The notes: generated from the sequence alone by a model not told the origin. Positions 7,223 to 57,686 are shown, counted from the first letter of the stretch. The stretch: 64,000 nt of DNA from Vicinamibacterales bacterium (GCA_965247955.1 OZ252042.1:608802-672801); one strand, 5' to 3'. Made by a program: numbers and translations.

Positions 7223-7552
7223 CTATAAACTCTGCGACGTATCCTGTTCAGTGCGTCGAAAGAGCTCGGCGATCTCGCGTTCAGTGGCAGCCAGTCGACT
7301 ACCGATGTGCCACATATACCCAAACGCTAAGATCCAAATAATTGAGTAGGCAGCTACCAGAAACGGCGCGGCTGGCAACCTATCCTCTTGCGTTAGTTCG
7401 TCGATCGGCACAAACTCTTCCTGTGCCGGTTGCACCTGCACGCTTTCCTCTATCGCAGTCATGGTCAACGCGGCATGTGGTATCAGCGTCGAAAAAACAA
7501 CCAGAGTGACAACAACGCCAACCCGCCAACGCAAGATCGATAGTCTCACCAT
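7223..7552 (-). CDS. ccmD: CcmD-like heme exporter subunit with an extra N-terminal TM/signal segment
   Basis: It follows ccmC, with GAGG 5 nt before the ATG. The C-terminal part PFLVAAYSIIWILAFGYMWHIGSRLAATEREIAEL resembles CcmD (TM helix plus a short cytoplasmic tail). Confidence 0.55.
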   Translation of the reverse strand: MVRLSILRWRVGVVVTLVVFSTLIPHAALTMTAIEESVQVQPAQEEFVPIDELTQEDRLPAAPFLVAAYSIIWILAFGYMWHIGSRLAATEREIAELFRRTEQDTSQSL

Positions 7553-7567
7553 GTTTGCCTCGCTACC

Positions 7568-8230
7568 TTAATACTCTTCAAGACTCAAATACAGCTGTTC
7601 GAGGGTTGCACGTTGTTCTTCGAGCCGTCGACGCACCCAAAGCAGAGCGAAGAACAGCATTAAATACGCCCCCACACACCACCAGAACGCTCCTCCCATT
7701 TCTAGGGGTAGCGTTGGAATGACCGTTGTCTGCGGGTGAAGGGTTCGCCACACATCTACCGAGATATAGACGAACGGGACATTGACCATTCCAAAGATGG
7801 CCAGACCTGCCGCCATCCGCTCTGAACCTGGACCACCGTATCCACGAAGAAGCAAATACGTCAGAAACGTTAATTCGAGGATGAGAGCAAGAGTGGTCCG
7901 AGCATCCCACGGCCACCACACCCCCCACGACACTCTCGCCCAGAGCGGTCCAGTGGACAGCCCCATCAGTCCGAACAAGACAGCGAGCTCAGCAGACGCC
8001 ACAGCAAGCCGATCGGCAGCCGGCTTCTCCCTGAACAGATAGATCCCACTGGAGATTCCGCAAATGAAGACCGCAAGAAACATCATGAACCATGACGGAA
8101 CATGAAAATAAAAGATCTTCTGTACGAGTCCCATCGTTGACTCATAGGGCGTGAGCGCTACCAGCAACGGCGCCAGACCAAACATGACGGCGCCCCCGAC
8201 GAGCAGCCCTCGAAAAATCAGCTGATTCAT
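7568..8230 (-). CDS. ccmC: heme exporter/heme lyase protein CcmC
   Basis: It is a polytopic membrane protein with the Trp-rich heme-handling motif WARVSWGVWWPWDARTT. It sits in the ccmABC context. Confidence 0.9.
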   Translation of the reverse strand: MNQLIFRGLLVGGAVMFGLAPLLVALTPYESTMGLVQKIFYFHVPSWFMMFLAVFICGISSGIYLFREKPAADRLAVASAELAVLFGLMGLSTGPLWARVSWGVWWPWDARTTLALILELTFLTYLLLRGYGGPGSERMAAGLAIFGMVNVPFVYISVDVWRTLHPQTTVIPTLPLEMGGAFWWCVGAYLMLFFALLWVRRRLEEQRATLEQLYLSLEEY

Positions 8231-8271
8231 CCCTTTTCCCTGGTGCTAAAGATTTCAGAATCGAACGCGAG

Positions 8272-9000
8272 TCATTCTGCCATGAGCGGTTCGAATGTCC
8301 ATAGGGCCAACGTAACAAAAACGACATCAAAAAACACGAGCACAGTGACCCAGAACCGCGCCATGTCGAGATTTGGTTCTACCTGGATAAGCGCTCCCGT
8401 TCCACTTATCCCAGCGATCATAACGGGCACCGTCACAGGATATAGCAACACTGGGAGTAAACCGGCACGACTCCTGGTTCGCACAAGCATCGCCGCGAAC
8501 AGTGTCCCGACAGCTGAGAATCCCACGGTACCAGTAACGAGCAGCAACGTCATGATCAGCGAATACTCGAACCACGGCACCCCGAACATGAGCGTGATCC
8601 AAAAGACAACAATTAGCTCTACGACTGCCATCAATAGAATAATGCCGATGACTTTTCCAACGAAGATCGCAGATCGTTCTACGGGCGCCAGCATGAGACT
8701 ACGTAGCGCATCGTACTGCCGTTCCCGCTCGAACGCCCGACCGATGGCGAGCGTGCCTGAAAATGCAATCGTCACCCAGAGGATGCCAGCTGACGCGCCT
8801 TCTATCGGTTGTCCCCCGCGTACAAATGCAAACGCGAAAATCAGAACACACGACGCGGCGAATAGAAGCGTCGTGTAGAGCATCTCTCGGCTCCGAGACT
8901 CTACGCGTAAATCCTTACGCATGACAAGCCAGGCGATTCTGAAGAATGCTCGCATTAGCGTCTTGACCGTGACACCGCTCGAGTGGAAGGCACTTCGCAC
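8272..9000 (-). CDS. ccmB: heme exporter permease CcmB
   Basis: It is a six-TM protein between ccmA and ccmC, with a FERERQYDALRSL..APV region as in CcmB. The start is uncertain, either the GTG at 9000 or the ATG at 8955. Confidence 0.85.
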   Translation of the reverse strand: MRSAFHSSGVTVKTLMRAFFRIAWLVMRKDLRVESRSREMLYTTLLFAASCVLIFAFAFVRGGQPIEGASAGILWVTIAFSGTLAIGRAFERERQYDALRSLMLAPVERSAIFVGKVIGIILLMAVVELIVVFWITLMFGVPWFEYSLIMTLLLVTGTVGFSAVGTLFAAMLVRTRSRAGLLPVLLYPVTVPVMIAGISGTGALIQVEPNLDMARFWVTVLVFFDVVFVTLALWTFEPLMAE

Positions 9001-9028
9001 GTCACCAGCAACCCTAGAACCTTAACAG

Positions 9029-9754
9029 TCATGTCGAAGCCAATCGTTGCCGATAGCGTTCCCTGAGAGACGTTCCTGAAGCGGCCAACTCGACGATTCG
9101 TCCATCCAGCAACATCACGGCGCGATCGATAAGCCCGTCTACGAAGTCGAGGTCATGGGTCGCTAAGAGCACGATACGACCATCGCGTTTAAGCTTAAAC
9201 AGCCGCTCGGTTAGGTTCTGGCTCGAGGCTTCGTCGAGTCCAGCGAATGGCTCATCGAGCAGTACCAGCCGTGGGTCGTGCAATAAGGTGCGTTCGAGTG
9301 CCAGCCGCTGGCGCATTCCGCGCGAGAAACTCTGGACCTGGTCGTCACCACGTGTTTCGAGCCCCGCTAGGTTCAACGCCTCTCCGGCGCGGCGCGGTAC
9401 ATCATTGAGACCGTACAACCTCGCAAAGAATTCTAGGTTCTCGCGTGCGGTGAGCTCCGGATAGAGCTGCGGCTCGTGTGACAGGAAGCCGATCTGCGTG
9501 CGCAACAGTAGCCCACCGCCGACCGGATTAAGATCGCCGTATCGAACGAATCCTGACGACGGGTTAACGAGCGTCGCCAACACACCCAATAAGGTTGATT
9601 TCCCGGAACCATTCGGACCAAGCAACCCGACGATTTCACTAGAGCTCAAGTGGAGGGATACCTTGCGGAGTGCTCGTCGCCGGCCGTAGTGACGGGAAAG
9701 ATCAGAAACGGTTACCTCTTGGAAATCGCAGGCTTGTTCAGTGGTGGGCGACAT
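9029..9754 (-). CDS. ccmA: heme exporter ATP-binding protein CcmA
   Basis: It has Walker A GPNGSGKST, signature FSRGMRQR and Walker B LVLLDEP. The track ORF starts at a TTG at 9766, but I prefer the ATG at 9754. Confidence 0.9.
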   Translation of the reverse strand: MSPTTEQACDFQEVTVSDLSRHYGRRRALRKVSLHLSSSEIVGLLGPNGSGKSTLLGVLATLVNPSSGFVRYGDLNPVGGGLLLRTQIGFLSHEPQLYPELTARENLEFFARLYGLNDVPRRAGEALNLAGLETRGDDQVQSFSRGMRQRLALERTLLHDPRLVLLDEPFAGLDEASSQNLTERLFKLKRDGRIVLLATHDLDFVDGLIDRAVMLLDGRIVELAASGTSLRERYRQRLAST

Positions 9755-9782
9755 TGTTCGGCACAAACGTTATGTTATTACC

Positions 9783-11138
9783 CTATGCGCCAGTACCGGG
9801 TGATCCGGTGATCGGAGTGGATTTACGAATGGATCCCAATGAACTCAGCACGGCCGGCACCGGTTCTTTGTCCCGCTCTCGGTAGATCAGCTCGAGCGCA
9901 GCAAACAACTCACGCTGACGAGTCTCATGCTTGGTAGCACCGATCTTTCCGGTTTCTCGCTGCTTCTCGATCCTAACTAGGTCAGCAAGAAGCTTTTCCT
10001 TGCGAGCCTCGAGCGACTGACGGCGATCCGAGGTCTTATGAGTCTTTGCTGACGCAGCCGCGCCCCATGCGCCGACCGTCAGGATGACCATCGCCAGAGC
10101 CAATGTAAGGTTGATTGGCACCCGACTATGATGCGGCAACCCGGTTAATTCAAACGTGAATGTGCTACCTGCCACCACGCGTGGTCCAGCTGCAAAGATG
10201 TAGGTCGTGTCGTCCAGGTTATCCTCCATCCGTCGGGTAATAAGATCCGATGTCACGTCCATCGTCCCCCATTTCTGCACCATTAACAGAAATGCCTCGA
10301 GGTCAGCCGGTACTCGTTGGGACACTGTAACCGTCCCTGTGTTGTACGGCAGGATATACGCCACACGAAGCGGGGTCACCCCTAGTTGAAAAGGACCAGG
10401 CAGCACCAACTGTAGGCCGTCGACCATCGTCCGTGGTGACGAGTCCTGAAGAACACTAACTGAAACGGTGCCGTGTGGCATGTTAAACATGATCGGCTCA
10501 TGAGGCTCGACCGGCGTGTCGCCCGTGTTGACGACGTCAAAGATGTAGTAAACCTCAACCGTCTCCTCACCCAATTCGACAATGATCCGCGAGTTGCTGC
10601 CGAACGTAACCAGGCCAGACTTCGCGGGAACAGCAGGCATCAATGAGTCGCTGGCAATCGCGCCGACCAGCATCACTCGAACGCCACCGCGGCCAGGAAT
10701 GCTGAAACGTTGCGACTCGAGCCGCTGTCCGTTGAGCTCAGTGACTGCATACACCTGGGCACCTGGAGTCAGCGTCAAAAACGTAGCGCGGCCATCGGCA
10801 TCGGTATTCGCCGTCACGACATAGTCGCCTTGGTGCAGATCGACCGGCTGGTCCGGAACGTTATTGTCTAGCGAACCGATGACCACGCGGACCGTGATCG
10901 TGCCGTCGGCGAGCTCAGGACTTGGCAGCGGCAAACCAGACATTTGCCGTGGATCAGGTTGGGCAACGACAGCCACCTCGCAAAGGATGACCAACAAAGA
11001 CGACAACAATACGCGTAGGCTGAGGTTTAAAAATTTTCGAGTGCATGGATCCAAGGTTCGCGGATGCGGTTCTGGCACCATTGGTTCAATAAAGGTCCAT
11101 CGCTCAATCACCAGTGCCTCCTCTAACCCTGCAACCAT
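9783..11138 (-). CDS. membrane-anchored protein: signal peptide, carboxypeptidase-regulatory-like beta-sandwich domain(s), one TM helix, cytoplasmic coiled-coil tail
   Basis: The ATG at 11138 is preceded by AGAGG. The segment TITVRVV...VDLHQGDYVVTANTDADGRATFLTLTPG is CarboxypepD_reg-like. A TM helix (INLTLALAMVILTVGAWGAAA) is followed by LEARKEKLLADLVRIEKQRETGKI. The gene is embedded in the ccm operon. Confidence 0.7.
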   Translation of the reverse strand: MVAGLEEALVIERWTFIEPMVPEPHPRTLDPCTRKFLNLSLRVLLSSLLVILCEVAVVAQPDPRQMSGLPLPSPELADGTITVRVVIGSLDNNVPDQPVDLHQGDYVVTANTDADGRATFLTLTPGAQVYAVTELNGQRLESQRFSIPGRGGVRVMLVGAIASDSLMPAVPAKSGLVTFGSNSRIIVELGEETVEVYYIFDVVNTGDTPVEPHEPIMFNMPHGTVSVSVLQDSSPRTMVDGLQLVLPGPFQLGVTPLRVAYILPYNTGTVTVSQRVPADLEAFLLMVQKWGTMDVTSDLITRRMEDNLDDTTYIFAAGPRVVAGSTFTFELTGLPHHSRVPINLTLALAMVILTVGAWGAAASAKTHKTSDRRQSLEARKEKLLADLVRIEKQRETGKIGATKHETRQRELFAALELIYRERDKEPVPAVLSSLGSIRKSTPITGSPGTGA

Positions 11139-11159
11139 GGAACCTCTGAACGCTTGAGC

Positions 11160-11750
11160 CTAAGTAAGTTCGTTCCCACATTTCTTGCAAAACCTCGCGT
11201 CGCATTCGTTGCTCGTACCGCATCCGTCGCACAAAGGGCGCATCGCTTCCAGACGTTCAACCGGCTCCTGGCCCTGCGGAGGTGGCGTAGCTCCTCGCTC
11301 CAACAGCTCACTCAAGTCACGCGCGATAATTTCACGATACCCAGACTTATTAAAATCGAGCTGACGCATCAATTTAAGAGCCCTCGAGCGGAGTCGTCCC
11401 CCCATCTCCTCAAAATCAGCGTCTGAGACCTTTCCCATCGCGTGATCGAACTCGAGCTCTTTGATCGAACGGAGCACAAGCGTCTTCTCACGTTCGAGCG
11501 CCGCACGCGTTCGCCCACCGATCATCTTGGTCCGATTCTGGAACTCGCGGGTGGTGAGCGGCCAGATCATGCAGTAGAATGCGAAGCCAACTCCTCCAGC
11601 GGCACCGATGGCGGCTACGAGCAAAACAAGTGCGGCAGGGTCGCCTGGGCGAACAACCACGACGCCGACAGTAGCGGCCACGAGACCGACCAGAACGAAC
11701 AAATGCCAGGGACGGAAGGTGATTTCAGTCGAGGTTGCGGAGCTCATCAT
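11160..11750 (-). CDS. two-TM membrane protein with a CcmI-N-like coiled coil and a C-terminal zinc ribbon
   Basis: Two TM helices are followed by LEREKTLVLRSIKELEFDHAMGKVSDADFEEM and a C-terminal CDGCG...CDARFCKKCG (CxxC...CxxC). The start (ATG at 11750 or 11747) overlaps the 3' end of ccmF. Confidence 0.65.
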   Translation of the reverse strand: MMSSATSTEITFRPWHLFVLVGLVAATVGVVVVRPGDPAALVLLVAAIGAAGGVGFAFYCMIWPLTTREFQNRTKMIGGRTRAALEREKTLVLRSIKELEFDHAMGKVSDADFEEMGGRLRSRALKLMRQLDFNKSGYREIIARDLSELLERGATPPPQGQEPVERLEAMRPLCDGCGTSNECDARFCKKCGNELT

Positions 11751-14280
11751 CCAAGCGGGCCTCAAGCTTCGCGTCCACTGGGTCCACTAAAGACGTCGCC
11801 TGGAGGCCCTCGGTTTCGTCACGGCGCGACCAACGGACGGCAATCACGCCAATTGCGATCAAAAAGCTTCCACCCACCAGATAGGGGAAGAGCCACGCCA
11901 GGCGGTTGAAGCCTTCGTCGAGCGGAGCGCCAAGAGGCTCCTGGCTCCCAAATGTGTTAATGAAATACCTTAGGATCTGATTTTTCGTCTTACCCTGCGC
12001 GATTTGCTCCTTAAGCTGACCGCGCATATACGCGGCACCGGCCGAGACAACCTCACGCCGACCGTCCGAGGTTGTTCTCCATGTCGGAGGCGCGGAACAT
12101 CGGCAGTCTGCCAATGTGTAGTGAGGACAGGTCCCGCAGACACAGACCAGCTCCCGTTGTAACTCACGTTCCAGCTCTGAGTCGACCGCGTACGACTCTG
12201 GAGTCGCTAGAACATTTCGGTCCTCAAGTTCCTGCGCACGCGCCGACGTGGCCAACCCACCGAGCGCCAGCGTCAGAAGAAAGACGGACGTCGTCGCCGT
12301 GCGTACGGCCTCTGGTGTCTTGGCCTTTAGGAACACGAAGGACTTTTCCGGCAGGAGCGCGATGCCAGTGCCGAACGCCAGAAAGGCAAAGCCGATCCAC
12401 ATCCAGTTCAGCAATGGGTTTACTGTAACCTGGAAGCTGGCAGATTGATCGCCAAGCTCGTACGCCGCCAGTACGACGTAGAGATCCTCGGACAGCGTCC
12501 GCCGGATGGCAACCTCCGTGGTCGGCTCGGTTTCGTGTTTCCGGTAAAACCAGCGACCCGGATAAAGTTGGCCGACCTGCTCCCCGTCCTTGAAGGCGGT
12601 CAAGTGCGCTGTGACCATCTGCTTGCGGCCGTCGTCAGTCTCGCTCAACCGGTCGTAGCGTACGGCAAAACGGCCTACCTCGACCTGTTCCCCGATGCCG
12701 AGCAGCACCTGTTCGCTCTGCTTGTAGCCGGAACCGGCAAAGCCGAGGAACATCAGAACAATTCCTGCGTGCACAATGTAGCCACCGTAGCTGTGACGGG
12801 AGCGCATGACGAGACCGATCATTGCGGTCACGACATCCGTTCCTGTGGCGCTGCGTCGCACGTTAGCACCGCGGATGAACTCTTGTCCGAGTGTTCCAGC
12901 AACGAACGCACACAGCGCGACCGCGATCCCGGAGACCCAAATGCGAAAACCAAGCGTGTACAGCAGTGCCGCACTAGTAAGAGCCAGCGAAACAGGCCAC
13001 ATGAATTGGTATCGTAAATTCGAGAGAGTCGACTTCCGCCAAGCAAGCAGCGGCCCGACCCCGGTCAGAAACAGTAACGTTAACCCAATCGGGATCATCC
13101 ATTTATTGAAGAATGGGGGGCCCACCGTGATCCGCTGCCCCGTTACCAACTCACTTAATGTCGGGAACATCGTGGCGAACAGAATAAAGAACGCTGTAAA
13201 CAGTAGGATCCAGTTGTTCAGCAAAAACGCCGCCTCACGCGATGCCCACGATTCGAGGTCGTTTCGCCCGCGGAGTAATGGCAGACGATAGATGACCCAG
13301 CCGAAGCTGAACACCAACAGCGCCACCATGAAGATACTGAACATCATCGCTAACTCGGGGTCCTCACCGAAGGCATGTACCGACTGCACGACGCCAGAGC
13401 GGGTCATGAATGTGCCGAAAATCGTCAAGAAGAACGTCAGTATGACAAGCGTGATGTTCCAAACCCGAAGCATGTTCCGCCGCTCTTGCACCATCACCGA
13501 GTGCAGGAATGCGGTGGCAGTAAACCACGGCAATGCGCCAGCATTTTCAACTGGATCCCATCCCCATACACCTCCCCACCCGAGCTCCTCGTAGGCCCAA
13601 ATCATTCCGAGCGTCAACCCAAGCGATAAGAAGAACCATGAGAACATCGTCCAGCGACGAACAGCGCGCAACCACGAGTCGTCGAGGTATCCGGTAATGA
13701 GGGCCGCCATGCCGAACGCGAACGGGATGGTCATCCCGACGAACCCGGTGTAAAGCGAAGGCGGGTGGATTGCCATGTACGGATTCTGGAGCAATGGATT
13801 AAGGCCGCGGCCGTCTGTCGGCGCCTGCATAAGGTACGTCTCGAACGGATTCTTGTGAACGATCATCAAGAAGAGAAAGAACATCTGCACAACTGCGATC
13901 ACTGCAACTACATACGGAATCAGTTCACGCTGGCGCTCGCGGTTGGTCTGGACAGCAATCGCGCCGAAGACCGACAACAGGAACACCCAGAACATGATCG
14001 ATCCGTCAAGACCACCCCAATACGACGTCAACTTGTAAAACAGTGGCTGAACCGAGTCAGAGTACCGGTCGACGTAGCGTATTGTGTAATCGTAGGTGAC
14101 GAAGGCATGAACGATGATCGCCGAGGCGAGCGTCATGAGTGCCGTGACGAGATAGAACGCGCCGATGCCACTCTCCGTCATTCGAGATGACTGGCGTTTT
14201 GCACCGGCCACACACGCAGCGGCGGCGTAGGCACAGGCGACGAACGCTGCAAGCAGAGAAAAAGTGCCGAGTGTGGCCAT
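11725..14280 (-). CDS. ccmF: cytochrome c heme lyase CcmF fused to a CcmH-like thiol-redox module
   Basis: The first ~640 aa are a polytopic CcmF with the WGGVWGWDPVENA motif. The C-terminal ~200 aa align to CcmH (ELVCVCGTCPHYTLADC...QGKTKNQILRYFINTFG...TM helix). The ATG at 14280 is preferred over the track TTG at 14283. Confidence 0.9.
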   Translation of the reverse strand: MATLGTFSLLAAFVACAYAAAACVAGAKRQSSRMTESGIGAFYLVTALMTLASAIIVHAFVTYDYTIRYVDRYSDSVQPLFYKLTSYWGGLDGSIMFWVFLLSVFGAIAVQTNRERQRELIPYVVAVIAVVQMFFLFLMIVHKNPFETYLMQAPTDGRGLNPLLQNPYMAIHPPSLYTGFVGMTIPFAFGMAALITGYLDDSWLRAVRRWTMFSWFFLSLGLTLGMIWAYEELGWGGVWGWDPVENAGALPWFTATAFLHSVMVQERRNMLRVWNITLVILTFFLTIFGTFMTRSGVVQSVHAFGEDPELAMMFSIFMVALLVFSFGWVIYRLPLLRGRNDLESWASREAAFLLNNWILLFTAFFILFATMFPTLSELVTGQRITVGPPFFNKWMIPIGLTLLFLTGVGPLLAWRKSTLSNLRYQFMWPVSLALTSAALLYTLGFRIWVSGIAVALCAFVAGTLGQEFIRGANVRRSATGTDVVTAMIGLVMRSRHSYGGYIVHAGIVLMFLGFAGSGYKQSEQVLLGIGEQVEVGRFAVRYDRLSETDDGRKQMVTAHLTAFKDGEQVGQLYPGRWFYRKHETEPTTEVAIRRTLSEDLYVVLAAYELGDQSASFQVTVNPLLNWMWIGFAFLAFGTGIALLPEKSFVFLKAKTPEAVRTATTSVFLLTLALGGLATSARAQELEDRNVLATPESYAVDSELERELQRELVCVCGTCPHYTLADCRCSAPPTWRTTSDGRREVVSAGAAYMRGQLKEQIAQGKTKNQILRYFINTFGSQEPLGAPLDEGFNRLAWLFPYLVGGSFLIAIGVIAVRWSRRDETEGLQATSLVDPVDAKLEARLDDELRNLD

Positions 14281-14430
14281 CAAAGGAACCTGTCGCGCCG
14301 GGCTTCAACCCCGACACCGGCCGTTGGGCGCGATCGACGGATGGTTAATGGCAGCCGGTCGGCGCACCGGCCGGCCTTGAAGTCTACAAACTATCGTGCG
14401 GGGTCTCAGCCCCCGTAACGAGATCCAAGC

Positions 14431-38667: not shown

Positions 38668-38859
38668 ATGAAATTTGATGTTTTGGCGTTCCTCGGCCCA
38701 CTCGGTTTGCCGGAGCTGGTAATCATCTTCTTCATCCTGCTACTTATTTTTGGAGCGAAGCGACTCTCGGGATTGGGAAAAGGCCTGGGTCAGGCCATCC
38801 GAGGCTTCAAGGATGAAGTGCAGGACGAGAACGACCACCATCCCACCAAGCCCGAATAG
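38668..38859 (+). CDS. tatA: twin-arginine translocase subunit TatA/E
   Basis: LPELVIIFFILLLIFGAKRLSGLGKGLGQAIRGFK is a typical TatA TM helix plus amphipathic helix. GGAAGG lies upstream of the ATG. Confidence 0.9.
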   Translation: MKFDVLAFLGPLGLPELVIIFFILLLIFGAKRLSGLGKGLGQAIRGFKDEVQDENDHHPTKPE

Positions 38860-38968: not shown

Positions 38969-39499
38969 CTACTGTCTCGCCACCCCTAACTCTGTTAGAT
39001 GGGCCACTAGATCTTGACCAGCTGTCGAGGCGCTAACCTGTTTGTCGACCCGAAGAACCTTGCCATCAGGCCCGATGATGTAAGTCCACCGGAACGGCCG
39101 CTGACGTTCCTCATTGACGACGCCGTAGGCCAGCGCGACGTCCTTTTCTGGATTGCTCAGGATTGGAAACTCAGCACCGAGAGATTCCGCGAATTCTTTG
39201 TTCGTTTGGGGATCATCGACACTCACCATGAAGTAGGCGATATCGAACTGACTCAACTGGTCGCTGGACTCACTCAGCGACTTGCATTCGGCCGTTCAAC
39301 CACCAGTGAACGCCTTCGGGAACCAGGCGAGAATGACTGTCTTACCTGAGTAGTCAGACAGCCGATGAATCTTGCCGTCGCTCCCAGGCAACTCGAACGC
39401 CGGCGCCTGATCTCCAGTGCCGAGTTCTTGTGCCTCTGACCCGCCGGTACCAATAGCGGCCAGGGCAAACACTACGGTCAGGATAAAGTATCCTCCCAT
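38969..39499 (-). CDS. secreted peroxiredoxin (AhpC/TSA, BCP/PrxQ-like) with an in-frame TGA at the peroxidatic Cys position; probable selenocysteine protein (Sec68)
   Basis: Track ORFs 39296..39898 and 38969..39256 share one frame and are interrupted only by the TGA at 39296-39298. The joined sequence ...GKTVILAWFPKAFTGG[U]TAECKSL...FMVSVDD...FPILSNPEKDVALAYGV... is a complete Prx fold, with the TGA on the PxxxTxxC cysteine. The ATG at 39499 has GGAGGA upstream and begins a signal peptide. A hairpin lies 14 nt after the TGA. Confidence 0.7.
39260..39281 (-). promoter_or_regulatory. candidate bacterial SECIS hairpin
   Basis: On the coding strand a perfect 7-bp stem GTCGCTG/CAGCGAC with the loop AGUGAGUC starts 14 nt after the UGA. 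Additional flanking pairing (CGAA..CAA with TTG..TTCG) extends it. Confidence 0.55.
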
Positions 39500-39520
39500 A
39501 ATCCTCCACTCCAGGCTTCG

Positions 39521-39544
39521 GCACGAACGGACCGCCGTTCGTGC
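39521..39544. repeat. perfect 10-bp inverted repeat (GCACGAACGG accg CCGTTCGTGC) in the peroxiredoxin leader
   Basis: Read directly from the sequence. It lies 22-45 nt upstream of the ATG at 39499 on the minus strand. Confidence 0.8.
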
Positions 39545-39901
39545 TCTGGTTGCAGACTCTAGACTCCTGCCAAGCCAGGATACTCTATCTAACACATCCA
39601 CACAAAACTCTTTGATTGAGTGAAATCTGCCTGGCCCGCTTGACAGCAGACCGACCATCCGTCGAGCATCGGATGGGAATATGGCCGCACGAGACCACCA
39701 GCGGAGATCTGGCCGTGATTGCCATGGGCCACTGAACCCTCGAGTTGAAAGAGAACGACGACAAAATCTTGTCGGTTCGATCCGGACAAGACCGCGAAGT
39801 GGTGCAGCGGTCTTAACCAGCGCCTGCCTAGCAAGCTCTTCAATCGAAACCGTTGAAATCCATCGGCGGCCTGCCACGCACCGTCCATACCCTGACATCC
39901 G

Positions 39902-40327
39902 ATGAGATTCGGGAAGGGCACCATCGTTGCCGGTGCGCTAGCATTCGTCGCGTTCACCGCCGCACCTCGAGCGTTACTGAACCATGGGAACGTACGGCCT
40001 GAGGTGTCACCCCCCTTCGCCTGGCTGCCTTTTCCAATCGCTGTGGAAGCGCCAACCGAAGGGGCACGACCGCGCCGGCCGCAGATGGGGGGGGCGGGCT
40101 GGCGCGGCGTCCGGTACTTCTCTGTTTACGGTGTGTTAATCGTCGAGGTCGAAACCGTGCAGCTACACTTGGCACCAACGATTGCCAAGAGAATTATTGC
40201 TCCTCTACAAGACGATTACATCGAAGTGCTTGTCTACTTCCGACGACCGGGAATAACCTTCGCAACGACACGGGTACAATGGACGCCAAGCATGGGATAT
40301 GTGACGAGCAACATCTCACCACACTAG
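39902..40327 (+). CDS. hypothetical protein (weak call)
   Basis: The N-terminus is signal-like (MRFGKGTIVAGALAFVAFTAAP) and the C-terminal half looks protein-like. The middle is Gly/Arg/Pro-rich, there is no SD and I recognise no homology. Confidence 0.3.
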   Translation: MRFGKGTIVAGALAFVAFTAAPRALLNHGNVRPEVSPPFAWLPFPIAVEAPTEGARPRRPQMGGAGWRGVRYFSVYGVLIVEVETVQLHLAPTIAKRIIAPLQDDYIEVLVYFRRPGITFATTRVQWTPSMGYVTSNISPH

Positions 40328-53123: not shown

Positions 53124-54905
53124 CTAGATACGATCGAATTGTTTTTCAATCTCGTGACGAGTCAACCGTAACTCGACCGGTCGTCCATGGGGACAGACTG
53201 TGGAATAGCTGGTAAGTCGAAGTGCGTTTAATATGTAGGTCATCTTTTCGAACGTCAGATGATCATTTGCCTTAACGGCCGCATGACATGCGGTCGTTGC
53301 TGCGATTCGTCTGAGTGCCTCATCGACGTCACTACCGTGATCCAGCCCCTCGAGATCTGCGGCCAAAGCGCGGACCGCTCCCTCGCTCCCCTTTCGGTCG
53401 AGCAATCCTGGAACAGCTGCAACACGTACGCTGCTTCCCCCAAACGTTTCGACATCGAACCCTAGACGATCCAGATCAGAGGCATGCGCGGCAATCGCGT
53501 CGCACTGTGCTGGTGGCAATTCGATTAGGATGGATTCGAGCAGTCGTTGGCTCTCCAGTCGTTCGTTCGACAATCCTGCCATGACCTGTTCGAAGAGCAC
53601 TCGTTCGTGAGCGACATGTTGGTCAACAATAACGACTCCGTTGTCATCAACAGCGATGATAAAGGTGTCACGAAACTGGCCGAGTGGAATGAGCAACCGC
53701 TCAGTGTTGTCGACCGAGAGGCCGTCGGTGATCACCGTCGCTCCCTCATGAATCTGTGACGCTGGAACATTCCTGCCAAGTGGCGAACGTTTAAAGATCT
53801 CAGTCGCTGGCTGCCAGCGGCTCGCGGCCGAGATCCCGGCTACAACGCCAGGAATCACTTGTGGCGTCGGCTTCGGTTCCTTAGATGTTTCGGATGGCAA
53901 TTCGAATGCGGGGGGAAGTCCAGTCCCGATGGCATCACCCAACGCGCGGCGCAGCACCTCGTGAATTAAGGACTGCTCAAGAAATCGCACTTCGGCCTTC
54001 ATCGGGTGAACGTTAACGTCAACCCTATCGGCTGGCACCTTAATGAAAAGATGTGCCTCTGGTCGGCGGACCTTAATTGTTGCTTGGCTGTACGCCTGGT
54101 TAATAGCATGTGCAATCGTTCGATCTTTAACCGCACGTCCGTTCACAAAGATGTTCTGGGGACCCCTTGCCGGCCCATGGTCAACGAGTGCCGCTACATA
54201 ACCGCGCACCTGGATACCGGCCGCGTCTTTCCGAATCTGAACCAGATCGGACCGCTCGCCATATAGTTGAAAGAAACGCTTGGCAAGTTCCGACACGGGC
54301 TGACACTGCAACAAGCGACGATTTCCGCTCGTCAGAATGAACCCAATCTCTGGATGCGCAAGAGCTAACTGCGTCAGCGCCCTCGAGACCTGGGACGATT
54401 CAGCGCCATCAGATTTCAGAAATTTGCGTCTCGCAGGCACGTTGTAAAAGAGGTCGGTCACCTCAACGACCGTGCCTTCCGGCATCCCGACCTCTCTAAT
54501 CAAGGTAGTGACACATCCGTCCACATGAATTTCCGTGCCGCTGGATGAGTCGCGGGCTCTTGTTCGAATCGTCAGATGTGATACCGATGCGATACTTGGC
54601 AAAGCTTCACCGCGAAACCCAAGCGTTGAGATCGCTCTGAGATCCTCGAGCCGCTCCAGCTTACTAGTCGCGTGGCGTTCCAAGGCGAGAGCAGCATCGT
54701 CCGACGTCATGCCATCGCCGTCGTCCTCAACACGGATGAGTCGCTTTCCACCTAACTCGATGGCGACCACGATCCGCCTAGCACTGGCATCTAGTGCATT
54801 TTCGACGAGTTCCTTGACAGCCGAGGCTGGACGTTCAACCACCTCGCCCGCGGCAATCTGATTTGACAACTCGGTTGTAAGCCGACGGACTTTGCCCATG
54901 GGCAA
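53124..54905 (-). CDS. mutL: DNA mismatch repair protein MutL
   Basis: It has the GHKL ATPase N-terminus (IAAGEVVERPASAVKELVENALDA) and the C-terminal dimerisation/endonuclease region. The start is the TTG at 54905 or the ATG at 54899. Confidence 0.95.
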   Translation of the reverse strand: MPMGKVRRLTTELSNQIAAGEVVERPASAVKELVENALDASARRIVVAIELGGKRLIRVEDDGDGMTSDDAALALERHATSKLERLEDLRAISTLGFRGEALPSIASVSHLTIRTRARDSSSGTEIHVDGCVTTLIREVGMPEGTVVEVTDLFYNVPARRKFLKSDGAESSQVSRALTQLALAHPEIGFILTSGNRRLLQCQPVSELAKRFFQLYGERSDLVQIRKDAAGIQVRGYVAALVDHGPARGPQNIFVNGRAVKDRTIAHAINQAYSQATIKVRRPEAHLFIKVPADRVDVNVHPMKAEVRFLEQSLIHEVLRRALGDAIGTGLPPAFELPSETSKEPKPTPQVIPGVVAGISAASRWQPATEIFKRSPLGRNVPASQIHEGATVITDGLSVDNTERLLIPLGQFRDTFIIAVDDNGVVIVDQHVAHERVLFEQVMAGLSNERLESQRLLESILIELPPAQCDAIAAHASDLDRLGFDVETFGGSSVRVAAVPGLLDRKGSEGAVRALAADLEGLDHGSDVDEALRRIAATTACHAAVKANDHLTFEKMTYILNALRLTSYSTVCPHGRPVELRLTRHEIEKQFDRI

Positions 54906-57686
54906 TCAGACGTTTGACTTTAGAGCAGCATGCGCTGCCGCCAGTCGCGCCGTTGGTACACTGTAGGGCGACGCGCTAACGTAATCGAGTGGAACCGTGG
55001 CAAAAAATTCGATCGACGCCGGATCGCCTGAATGTTCCCCACAGGTCCCGAGTTTGAGATCAGGCCTAGTGCTACGGCCCTTCTCGGCCGCCATCCGAAT
55101 TAACGCGCCGACACCATCGACATCGATCGACGCAAAGGGATCCTTGTCAAGAATCCGTTGGTCTCGGTAGACACGCAGGAACTTACCCGCATCGTCCCGA
55201 GAGAACCCAAACGTCATCTGTGTTAGATCGTTGGTCCCGAACGAGAAAAACTCAGCCTCCGCGGCAATTTCATCGGCGGTAATCGCACCGCGCGGCACCT
55301 CGAGCATCGTCCCAACAAGATACTTGACCTTTACACCCTGGGCCAGCATCGTTTCGGTGGCGACCCGGTTGACGACGTCCTTCTGAACCCGGAGCTCCTT
55401 CACGTGCCCGACCAGTGGAATCATGATCTCTGGCACGATTCGCTTCCCCTCCTTCACCATCAGGCAAGCTGCCTCGATAATAGCTTTTGTCTGCATCTCG
55501 GTGATCTCCGGATAGCTGATGCCAAGCCGTACGCCGCGATGTCCCATCATCGGATTGAACTCATGAAGGTGATCCACTCGATTCAATAATTCTTTTTTTT
55601 CCGCAATCGTGCCCGCATCACCGTTTGACGCCTGGAGCCAGGCGAGCTCCACCATTAGCTTTTCACGCTTGGGTAAGAACTCGTGGAGAGGTGGATCGAT
55701 CAGCCTAATTGTGACCGGCAGGCCGTGCATCGCCTGAAAGAGCTCGTAGAAGTCCTGGCGCTGGTACGGGAGTAATTCCGCGAGGGCACGGCGTCGATCA
55801 GACTCGCTTTCTGCAAGGATTACACGCCGCATGATCGGCAGACGGTTATCACCGAAGAACATGTGTTCCGTACGACAGAGTCCGATCCCGCGAGCACCGA
55901 AGGCATATGCTACCGCGGCCTGATCCGGAAGGTCTGCATTTGCCCGAATACCGAGCCGTCGGAACTTGTCGGCCCATCCCAGGAGCTTCGAGAAGCGTTT
56001 GTAGATGTCTGAACGCTTCGGGTCGAGTTTACCGTCGAGCACCTGCAGGATCTCGCTTGCTTTAGTCTCTACCTGGCCAAGCTTTACCTCGCCACTTAAT
56101 CCGTCGAACGACACGAAGTCTCCCTCGCGCACCAACTGTCCGCCGACACGAATGGTGCGAGCCGCCTCGTCGATCTCAAGCTCTCCAGCGCCGACGACGA
56201 CTGGCTTCCCCATCTGTCGCCCAACTACAGCAGCATGAGAAGTTCTACCACCGGTCGCGGTCAAGACTCCCTTGGCCACGTGCATGCCGTGGATGTCATC
56301 CGGCACCGTCTCCTTCCGCGCCAACACGACCGGCTTGCCGGCATCGGTCCATGTCACGGCATCATCAGCCGTGAAAACTACTTGGCCCGACGCGGCACCT
56401 GGCGACGCTGGCAAGCCGCGTGTCACGACCGACAGGGATTCCCATGCCTGCGGATCGAAAATTGGGGCTAGTAACTGATACAACGCGGCCGGATTGACGA
56501 GCAGTACCGCTTCCGCTCGCTTGATAAGCCGCTCGGCCACAAGGTCGGTTGCAATTACTACCGCCGCGTAACCGGTCCGCTTACCACTTCGCGTCTGTAA
56601 CATGTAGAGCTCGTCATCCTGAATGGTGAACTCGAAATCCTGCATGTCCTTGTAGTGTCGTTCCAAACGGTTCGTAATCCGTCGCAGCTGCTTGTAGGCG
56701 TGAGGCATGATCCTTTCCAGCTCACGAATCGGCTGGGGAGTTCGGATACCGGCGACGACATCTTCACCCTGTGCGTTGACGAGGAATTCCCCATAGAACT
56801 CCTTGACGCCGGTGGCCGGATTTCGAGTGAAACCGACACCCGTGGCCGACCGGTCGCCGCTGTTGCCAAAGACCATGGTCTGAACGTTCACAGCGGTGCC
56901 GATCGCGTCTGAAATATCGTAAATCCTCCGGTACTCAATAGCTCTGGGAGTATTCCATGAACGAAAGACCGCGTTGCACGCCATCCTTAACTGGGTTAAC
57001 GGATCTTGCGGAAATACCCGGCCACTCTTATCCCGCACGACATCTTTATAGCGAACAACGACTTCTCGGAGCATTGTCTCGTTGAGATCCGTATCAAGCC
57101 TGACGCCGTAGGCAACCTTGACATGGTCGAGCTCGCGCTCAAAGTCGTCTTTCGGAATCTCAAGGACTACATTGCCAAACATCTGGATGAAGCGCCGGTA
57201 GCTGTCGAACGCAAATCGGCCGTTAGTCGTACGCGCCTTGAGACCTTCGACCGTTTTGTCGTTCAGCCCAAGATTGAGGATGGTATCCATCATGCCTGGC
57301 ATCGAAAACTTCGAACCAGACCGGACAGACACTAGCAGTGGCTTTTCGGAAGAACCGAGCACAGAGCCCACTTGCTGTTCGAGTCGCTGGAGATGTGTTT
57401 CCATCTCCCGGTCGACAGCTTTAGACACCTTACGACCACCGGCGTAAAACAGCGCACAAACGTCTGTCGTAATCGTGAATCCTGGCGGCACCGGCAATCC
57501 GGCGTTGGTCATCTCAGCGAGACCCGCGCCCTTGCCCCCCAGGAGGTCGCGCATCGTTCGGTCGCCTTCCGCCTTCCCACCACCGAAGAAATAGATGTGC
57601 TTCTTTCTGGATCTCAGCTTCTTGGGACGAGTCCTGGTAGTGGAAGCCTTCCGCTTATTTACCTTTTTTCTCACCATCGTCTCCAA
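54906..57686 (-). CDS. ppdK: pyruvate, phosphate dikinase with a ~29-aa basic N-terminal extension
   Basis: It is a full-length PPDK with LLGGKGAGLAEM, the phosphohistidine region GGRTSHAAVV and the C-terminal PEP-utilising domain (CGEH). Confidence 0.95.
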   Translation of the reverse strand: METMVRKKVNKRKASTTRTRPKKLRSRKKHIYFFGGGKAEGDRTMRDLLGGKGAGLAEMTNAGLPVPPGFTITTDVCALFYAGGRKVSKAVDREMETHLQRLEQQVGSVLGSSEKPLLVSVRSGSKFSMPGMMDTILNLGLNDKTVEGLKARTTNGRFAFDSYRRFIQMFGNVVLEIPKDDFERELDHVKVAYGVRLDTDLNETMLREVVVRYKDVVRDKSGRVFPQDPLTQLRMACNAVFRSWNTPRAIEYRRIYDISDAIGTAVNVQTMVFGNSGDRSATGVGFTRNPATGVKEFYGEFLVNAQGEDVVAGIRTPQPIRELERIMPHAYKQLRRITNRLERHYKDMQDFEFTIQDDELYMLQTRSGKRTGYAAVVIATDLVAERLIKRAEAVLLVNPAALYQLLAPIFDPQAWESLSVVTRGLPASPGAASGQVVFTADDAVTWTDAGKPVVLARKETVPDDIHGMHVAKGVLTATGGRTSHAAVVGRQMGKPVVVGAGELEIDEAARTIRVGGQLVREGDFVSFDGLSGEVKLGQVETKASEILQVLDGKLDPKRSDIYKRFSKLLGWADKFRRLGIRANADLPDQAAVAYAFGARGIGLCRTEHMFFGDNRLPIMRRVILAESESDRRRALAELLPYQRQDFYELFQAMHGLPVTIRLIDPPLHEFLPKREKLMVELAWLQASNGDAGTIAEKKELLNRVDHLHEFNPMMGHRGVRLGISYPEITEMQTKAIIEAACLMVKEGKRIVPEIMIPLVGHVKELRVQKDVVNRVATETMLAQGVKVKYLVGTMLEVPRGAITADEIAAEAEFFSFGTNDLTQMTFGFSRDDAGKFLRVYRDQRILDKDPFASIDVDGVGALIRMAAEKGRSTRPDLKLGTCGEHSGDPASIEFFATVPLDYVSASPYSVPTARLAAAHAALKSNV

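Follow-up and report, generated by a model that had tools for sequence, protein, structure and literature searches.

The 64,000-nucleotide (nt) stretch of a Vicinamibacterales bacterium analysed here (GCA_965247955.1, OZ252042.1:608802-672801) is referred to below as the window, and positions are counted from its first letter. On its minus strand, at 39499..38969, it carries a gene that is interrupted by a single in-frame TGA and that most likely encodes, as one intact unit, an exported peroxiredoxin (Prx) of the BCP/AhpE type containing selenocysteine (Sec, U in motifs). We estimate the probability of this reading at roughly 0.88. As judged from sequence comparisons, the TGA itself is almost certainly a Sec codon in a peroxide-destroying enzyme of a soil-type acidobacterium.

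One gene split by an in-frame TGA

Translation of the minus strand from the ATG at 39499-39497 to the TAG at 38971-38969 gives 176 codons followed by the stop, with one internal stop only, the TGA at 39298-39296, which corresponds to codon 68. The mechanical list of open reading frames (ORFs) reports this region as two minus-strand ORFs, 39296..39898 and 38969..39256, the second of which begins at a TTG located 13 codons past the TGA. A preliminary description of this DNA had noted that both ORFs are in the same frame and that only the TGA and 13 sense codons lie between them, and the ORF list bears this out. The same description had taken the ATG at 39499 as the true start: the homologous position is indeed a Met or Val start in orthologs, and a Shine-Dalgarno-like GGAGGA was read from the sequence 2 nt 5' of the ATG, at 39502..39507 on the minus strand. 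As for the 133 codons located upstream of this ATG in the longer ORF, which had been considered not to be protein, no homolog has a counterpart to them. Once joined, the product reads ...AWFPKAFTGG-U-TAECKS... around the TGA, with the Sec at residue 68 and a Cys at residue 72. The gene occupying 38969..39499 (minus strand) is therefore described as a complete selenoprotein gene on the basis of its translation together with the Pfam, AlphaFold2 and Foldseek results given below.

Two additional ORFs are superimposed on the Prx gene: the first (39014-39349, plus strand, 111 codons) runs in the opposite direction and the second (39274-39468, minus strand, 64 codons) uses another frame of the same strand. 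Both are shadows of a GC-rich gene, of a kind that callers may wrongly report once the real gene has been split.

Peroxiredoxin fold and active site

Domain searches, which were run with a Cys substituted at codon 68, returned two Pfam matches that both extend across the TGA: AhpC-TSA (PF00578) over residues 29-148, with E = 4.8e-32 and 110.9 bits for a gathering cut-off of 26, and Redoxin over residues 29-155, with E = 3e-18. The AlphaFold2 model computed from a 20-sequence alignment has a mean predicted local distance difference test (pLDDT) value of 89.4, with values above 90 for the greater part of the mature domain and of ca. 50 at residues 1-20. When this model was compared to the PDB using Foldseek, the top matches were BCP, Mycobacterium tuberculosis AhpE, Sulfolobus Bcp1/Bcp4 and Xylella PrxQ, with a probability of 1.00 and target-normalised template modelling (TM) scores of 0.80-0.85. 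This ranking is consistent with that obtained by sequence search (phmmer against PDB chains, E from 2e-15 to 1e-14, 22-33% identity). The Pfam matches spanning the TGA and the agreement of the model with Foldseek confirm the earlier proposal that reading through the TGA gives a complete AhpC/TSA (BCP/PrxQ-like) fold.

In the local motif W-F-P-K-A-F-T-G-G-[TGA]-T-A-E-C, the TGA occupies the peroxidatic position of PxxxTxxC and a second Cys occurs four residues further on, both of which had been pointed out before and are retrieved here from the translation and from alignment A1, in which the window protein and 19 relatives are compared (20 sequences). Four residues are invariant in this alignment, namely Pro61 (codon at 39317..39319), which is the first residue of PxxxTxxU, Thr65 of the same motif (39305..39307), Cys72 (TGC, 39284..39286) and Arg137 (39089..39091), all on the minus strand. 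Arg137 is found in RWTYIIGPDG and represents the conserved catalytic Arg of peroxiredoxins. Cys72, located four residues after the Sec (UxxxC), is the candidate resolving Cys; in the AlphaFold2 model residue 68 is situated just ahead of a helix formed by residues 70-77, in line with the thioredoxin-type Prx fold, where the peroxidatic residue is found at the N-terminus of helix alpha2, and Cys72 lies in the first turn of the 70-77 helix. A resolving Cys five residues after the peroxidatic one, which is the spacing that gives many BCP/PrxQ proteins their canonical CxxxxC, was not found in the window protein, where the second Cys is at +4 (U-T-A-E-C). Indeed, in the alignment with the PDB chain 2ywn, Cys72 is placed opposite a Met and the Cys of 2ywn comes one position later (+5). 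The position of the resolving Cys is known to vary within the BCP/PrxQ family (PMC3322552).

No NCBIfam model claims this protein, the best one being BCP with 71.9 bits for a cut-off of 140, and the PrxU model (NF040737) stays below threshold with 51.7 bits for a cut-off of 270. The Sec codon therefore goes unflagged in annotation pipelines.

Conservation of the TGA codon in related loci

A database search retrieved 1279 relatives, and the residues found at the TGA column were counted in the best 120 of these: 103 have a Cys, 14 a Trp, one a Gly and one a Leu. In alignment A1 the column is filled by Cys in 18 sequences and by Trp in the closest match, P0001, which shares 74% identity with the window protein. 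The P0001 protein record has a W at a position where its contig has a TGA codon (L001:1283-1285), and since the DNA codon is TGA this Trp is regarded as an artefact of a metagenome gene caller using genetic code 4.

The orthologs with a Trp or a Gly at this position (FTGG[W/G]TAEC; 14 and 1, respectively) are P0001, P0008, P0012, P0025, P0026, P0027, P0031, P0037, P0046, P0057, P0069, P0072, P0081, P0084 and P0091. A separate case is P0079, in which a Leu at the peroxidatic position (FTGGLTAECRS) is explained neither by Sec nor by a code-4/25 artefact; this protein may represent a paralog devoid of activity, or else an error.

Scanning one genome per species resulted in 80 loci, or 81 when the P0001 contig is included. 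Most of the 80 come from metagenome-assembled genomes (MAGs) of Vicinamibacterales or other Acidobacteriota, with identities to the window protein reaching 79%, and the best orthologs (75-79%) belong to the Vicinamibacterales. At the codon equivalent to codon 68, where homologs almost invariably have a Cys, 71 of the 81 loci carry TGA and the other 10 carry TGC or TGT. Past the TGA, all 71 loci concerned remain open for 106-131 codons, and the C-terminal part thus encoded, of ca. 107 residues, displays a median identity of 60% to that of the window. Metagenomes were searched with a degenerate DNA pattern that recognises the Sec form specifically, which matched at least 120 contigs. Among the matches listed, 110 sequences are unique, and at least 100 open codons follow the TGA in 96 of the 97 that were testable. 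In a rough neighbour-joining tree, Sec and Cys forms are interleaved. Overall, the column holds what the preliminary description had expected, that is Cys in most of the best matches and TGA in most of the loci. The situation that it had associated with a pseudogene, in which relatives carry Cys and the locus is further disrupted, was not encountered, the TGA being shared by most loci and no other disruption of the frame being present.

A bacterial SECIS hairpin downstream of the TGA

A hairpin having the features of a bacterial selenocysteine insertion sequence (SECIS) core is located at 39260..39281 on the minus strand, as supported by its fold, by published criteria and by pairing in orthologs. 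It is composed of a perfect 7-bp upper stem, GUCGCUG/CAGCGAC, whose arms lie at 39281-39275 and 39266-39260, and of an 8-nt apical loop, AGUGAGUC; the stem begins 14 nt and the loop 21 nt past the UGA. Stem, loop and distance are those given in the preliminary description. The consensus published for bacterial SECIS elements (PMC13188914) combines an apical loop of 3-9 nt with a G in its first two positions, usually followed by G or U, an upper stem of 4-16 bp, a UGA-to-loop distance of 16-37 nt and a minimum free energy (MFE) of -7.5 kcal/mol or lower. The window hairpin agrees with this consensus on all four counts (loop of 8 nt starting A-G-U, stem of 7 bp, distance of 21 nt, -10.6 kcal/mol), so that its spacing and shape do fit a bacterial SECIS as had been suggested (PMC13188914). 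Recoding of the same amino acids according to the codon usage of the window yielded a conforming hairpin of equal stability in 35 of 5000 resamples.

Comparative data are more telling. All 72 TGA sequences have a hairpin in which a stem of 6-8 bp carries a loop of 3-8 nt, placed 21-22 nt past the UGA and starting with N-G-[U/G]; this start is CGU, CGG, AGG or AGU in 69 of them, and in 64 the upper stem alone reaches -7.5 kcal/mol or lower. Such a hairpin, at -7.5 kcal/mol or better, occurs in one of the 10 loci with a Cys codon. Two SECIS registers were distinguished, which have a common 5' arm and 3' arms one codon apart, with loops of 8 nt versus 5 nt, and which follow different peptides, S-E/R-S-S-D versus R-E-S-G (alignments A3 and A4). 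In the register of the window type, where the 3' arm is one codon further downstream and the loop is of 8 nt, 96.8% of the stem cells are paired (n=27) and the stem is nearly invariant, with one double change. In the alternative register, GUCGCUC-CGUGA-GAGCGGC with a 5-nt loop, 99.0% of the cells are paired (n=42), double changes affect four of the seven stem pairs (GC/AU, CG/UA, CG/GC) and the covariation score was reached by none of 500 shuffles. Metagenome copies provide more compensated stems, such as GUCAUUC/GAAUGGC and UCACUU/AAGUGA. Several of the compensatory changes alter the amino acids encoded by both arms, for instance Leu to Phe together with Ser to Asn, and selection therefore acts on the pairing of the RNA. 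The hairpin is thus conserved in the orthologs that carry the TGA, a point on which the preliminary description had made its proposal depend, and nine of the 10 Cys loci are without it. A possible extension of the hairpin into a lower stem that includes the UGA (39244..39298, minus strand) had also been mentioned. It is present in the MFE fold, and across orthologs ca. 70-72% of its cells are paired with a covariation little above that of controls, so that this part of the structure is unproven.

The TGA form with the same SECIS was also detected in MAGs assigned to other phyla: L036, L054 and L058 (Acidimicrobiia), L050 (Chloroflexi), L041 (Woeseiaceae), and L064, L066 and L080 (Planctomycetota). 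Either the Sec form has been transferred horizontally or the contigs concerned were mis-binned.

N-terminus and predicted export

Codons 1-23 (MGGYFILTVVFALAAIGTGGSEA; 39431..39499, minus strand) are predicted, from inspection and from comparison to orthologs, to encode a signal peptide of the Sec-translocon type (Sec-type) that ends in a cleavage-like site, S-E-A|Q. The N-terminus of the window protein has neither a twin-arginine motif nor a lipobox Cys. A hydrophobic N-terminus of 20-25 residues is also present in orthologs, where it leads via A-x-A|Q-[E/G]-L straight into the conserved mature start L-x-x-G-D-x-A-P, and the PDB chains of cytosolic BCP/AhpE proteins, which are devoid of an N-terminal extension, align with the window protein only from residue 26-28 on. 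Since this extension is hydrophobic and conserved and has no twin-arginine motif and no lipobox Cys, residues 1-23 are read as a Sec-type signal peptide. This assignment, called by inspection and considered probable, is in agreement with the orthologs, with the structure model and with the points at which the cytosolic homologs begin. Between codon 1 and the domain, the only alternative in-frame start is an internal GTG situated within the hydrophobic segment.

Alternative explanations

A number of observations weigh against an exported selenoprotein. No tRNA-Sec was detected in the 64-kb window, for which ARAGORN and Rfam gave tRNA-Phe and tRNA-Val only, and NCBIfam scans of 57 window ORFs revealed no SelA, SelB or SelD. 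Likewise, no tRNA-Sec (ARAGORN) and no SelD (tblastn with an E. coli SelD query) were found in ca. 1 Mb of related loci, a result that is uninformative because the sel genes may well be located away from the Prx gene; we infer from the conserved UGA and SECIS that this genome would possess the machinery for Sec decoding. Dinucleotide shuffling of an 81-nt segment gave z = -1.68, meaning that the single-sequence fold is marginally better than the shuffles, and the case for the hairpin therefore comes from the comparative data and not from this fold. Finally, the n-region of the window protein (MGGY...) is without a basic residue when most orthologs begin with MR... or MK..., no gene for a thioredoxin-like partner is adjacent, and TlpA, ScsB and DsbD were not seen near the Prx gene.

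Three other explanations were considered. The locus might be a pseudogene in which a Cys codon (TGC or TGT) has mutated to TGA, a dead relic that ORF callers would then have split correctly; one base change is sufficient for this, Cys forms are common in other lineages and the Sec machinery was not found within the window. Such a relic does not account for a TGA shared by 71 of the 81 species-level genome loci and by at least 110 distinct metagenome sequences, for the conserved C-terminal part and the absence of any further frame disruption, or for a hairpin that TGA forms preserve through compensatory changes and that nine of the 10 Cys forms lack. The preservation of the TGA and of the open frame behind it across loci and metagenomes is therefore taken to exclude a pseudogene, to which we leave little more than a nominal probability. 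A second explanation is that the UGA is read as Trp or Gly (genetic codes 4 and 25) or is passed by near-cognate read-through, in line with the Trp and Gly recorded in 14 and one of the best 120 homologs and with the W of P0001 where the DNA has TGA. These residues are gene-caller artefacts, and TGA is an ordinary stop in the window: the genes for pyruvate phosphate dikinase (PPDK; 865 of 865 model positions) and UvrB both end in TGA and match their models over the full length, which indicates that this genome does not reassign UGA. Moreover, with Trp or Gly as the peroxidatic residue the protein would lose its Prx chemistry, yet the Pro, Thr and Arg of the active site are invariant, and a reassigned codon has no need of a conserved SECIS-like hairpin downstream. 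Recoding of this kind is accordingly held to be very improbable.

The remaining alternative retains a genuine Sec-peroxiredoxin and questions its being a soluble exported protein, the N-terminus acting as an uncleaved membrane anchor or the protein being cytoplasmic with a start further downstream. The lack of positive charge in the n-region, a signal peptide that was called by inspection and the lack of an adjacent gene for an envelope reductant are all compatible with it. It has to face the hydrophobic N-terminus of 20-25 residues that all orthologs display, with its A-x-A|Q end placed before L-x-x-G-D-x-A-P, as well as the absence of any in-frame start before the domain save the GTG inside the hydrophobic segment; besides, exported BCP-type peroxiredoxins do exist, such as PprX (PMC3322552). 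We consider an anchored or cytoplasmic form to be unlikely, with a small chance of being correct, and retain the exported Sec-peroxiredoxin as the preferred reading.

Proposed mode of action

According to what is known of the bacterial Sec pathway, the hairpin at 39281-39260, with its G/U-containing loop 21 nt past the UGA, would recruit SelB-GTP-Sec-tRNA(Sec), and the UGA at 39298-39296 would then be decoded as Sec instead of acting as a stop. The signal peptide of ca. 23 residues is predicted to target the product to the Sec translocon, and thereby to the periplasm or the envelope of the cell. There, by analogy with Prx chemistry, the U68 selenolate, activated by Pro61, Thr65 and Arg137, would reduce peroxides and be converted to selenenic acid, which may be resolved as a selenenylsulfide with Cys72. 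Recycling might be ensured by a thioredoxin-like reductant of the envelope, as is the case of TlpA with ScsB/DsbD for the Caulobacter PprX.

Relation to known selenoproteins and peroxiredoxins

Kryukov and Gladyshev (2004) is said to be among the surveys describing Sec-containing peroxiredoxins. In the Sargasso Sea data, Sec-peroxiredoxins with a TxxU motif (COG1225, BCP group) accounted for 43 sequences and formed the second most abundant family (Zhang et al. 2005, PMC1088965), and a 2006 genome survey counted 12 members and deduced that Cys had been converted to Sec on five occasions (Zhang et al. 2006, PMC1794560). The class is thus not new, as had been acknowledged from the start (PMC1088965, PMC1794560). 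The window protein resembles this family (COG1225/PF00578, TxxU) in having an AhpC/TSA fold, a Sec in place of the peroxidatic Cys in PxxxTxxU and a bacterial SECIS directly 3' of the UGA, as well as in its many Cys homologs and in the interleaving of Sec and Cys forms in the tree. Compared with the family as described, the subfamily found in the window has a probable signal peptide, a Cys at U+4 (UTAEC) and its centre in Vicinamibacterales/Acidobacteriota. The Prx-like thiol:disulfide oxidoreductase selenoproteins, characterised by UxxC (PMC1088965), represent another type, the window protein having TxxU with UxxxC.

PrxU is a cytoplasmic enzyme of ca. 230 residues from an anaerobic Firmicute. 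It shares with the window protein a Sec at the peroxidatic position of a thioredoxin-dependent peroxiredoxin, and the window protein would work in a like manner without being an ortholog of PrxU, as seen from its 51.7 bits for the cut-off of 270. For PrxU of Eubacterium acidaminophilum, the experimental demonstration of a Sec-peroxiredoxin is credited to Sohling et al. 2001, as cited in PMC13188914.

A known counterpart for the predicted localization is PprX (CC1673) of Caulobacter crescentus, a periplasmic peroxiredoxin of the BCP/PrxQ type that has a signal sequence of ca. 20 residues and a non-canonical resolving Cys (PMC3322552); PprX uses Cys where the window protein has Sec. PprX, which is re-reduced via TlpA from ScsB or DsbD, is the only exported BCP-type Prx to have been characterised (PMC3322552), and by analogy it may serve as the best available model for the recycling of the window enzyme. 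The best matches in both sequence and fold, 1xvw (M. tuberculosis AhpE), 3drn and 3hjp (Sulfolobus Bcp1/Bcp4), 2ywn (S. tokodaii Prx) and 3ixr (Xylella PrxQ), differ from it in being cytosolic Cys enzymes and share 22-33% identity with it.

As regards the lineage, three selenoprotein families were reported for Acidobacteria in the 2006 survey (PMC1794560), and Occallatibacter riparius is a Sec user with three selenoprotein genes (PMC12013277). The text of the BSepDB paper (PMC13326102) makes no mention of Prx or Acidobacteria. Predicted envelope or exported selenoproteins have already been reported and include DsbA-like proteins, thiol:disulfide interchange proteins, SaoB and a TonB-dependent receptor (PMC13188914, PMC12013277). 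In this light the window protein departs modestly from the known Sec-peroxiredoxin family, by its probable signal peptide, its UxxxC spacing and its lineage.

Genomic context

The window is chromosomal and acidobacterial, with recA, uvrB, mutL, glyQS, era, recO, the gene for PPDK, a Ccm cluster and genes for acidobact_VWFA proteins. Both the best orthologs, which are from Vicinamibacterales, and the acidobact_VWFA domains point to this lineage. The neighbours of the Prx gene are VKOR, a c-type cytochrome, TatA, MscS and HGPRT. Those that are syntenic in related loci are a convergent tatA and a divergent ORF of unknown family, with a tRNA-Val(CAC) in several loci. The tatA gene (38668-38859, plus strand) lies immediately past the 3' end of the Prx gene, and 25 loci of the Vicinamibacterales type share this synteny; the linkage may be coincidental, the Prx signal peptide being without a twin-arginine motif. 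Upstream, the divergent ORF of 141 codons (39902-40327, plus strand) is matched by no Pfam or NCBIfam model, yet 11 related loci have a counterpart in the equivalent place, with 40-55% amino-acid identity. It probably represents a genuine gene, of unknown function, which may be a functional partner of the Prx gene.

Two scans of the window for TGA-interrupted ORFs with redox motifs yielded no other selenoprotein gene, the remaining candidates being shadow ORFs over real genes. The TGA stop of the PPDK gene (54906-57686), at 54905-54908 on the minus strand, abuts the TTG start listed for mutL (53124-54905), which is in the same frame; because both match full-length models, this junction corresponds to ordinary gene packing and not to a second Sec site. 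In one related locus, a 92-nt sequence called tRNA-Ser(act) by ARAGORN (L007:6407-6498) and located 3 kb from the Sec-Prx ortholog was considered as a misread tRNA-Sec; it had no Rfam match at E <= 0.01 and is probably a false positive. Finally, the cytochrome c maturation (Ccm) cluster, composed of ccmA, B, C, D and F, lies at 7223-14283 on the minus strand and includes two ORFs, 9783-11138 (451 amino acids) and 11160-11765 (201 amino acids), which have no Pfam or NCBIfam match and occupy positions at which CcmG/H/I-type proteins are expected.

Significance

The window gene belongs to a widespread and systematically mis-annotated subfamily of soil and sediment Acidobacteriota. Standard callers break the gene in two, and public sets hold either fragments or proteins with a Trp or Gly at the active site; a family model in which the Sec is flagged would correct the annotation in hundreds of Acidobacteriota MAGs. 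The finding leaves the knowledge of Sec decoding and of peroxiredoxin chemistry unchanged. Few envelope selenoproteins have been predicted so far, and a thiol/selenol peroxidase that is probably exported would now join them. The finding also suggests that selenium supply affects the oxidative-stress defence of a dominant soil lineage.

A broader proposal, which we advance tentatively and at slightly less than even odds, is that the main cell-envelope peroxiredoxin of Vicinamibacterales and allied soil and sediment Acidobacteriota is a selenoenzyme exported by the Sec translocon, equipped with a UxxxC pair and missed by annotation essentially everywhere. The proposal further takes the two SECIS registers of the family, one codon apart, to be interchangeable, which would provide a natural test set for the rules of SelB-SECIS recognition. 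If it is true, the envelope peroxide defence of a very abundant soil lineage would depend on selenium.

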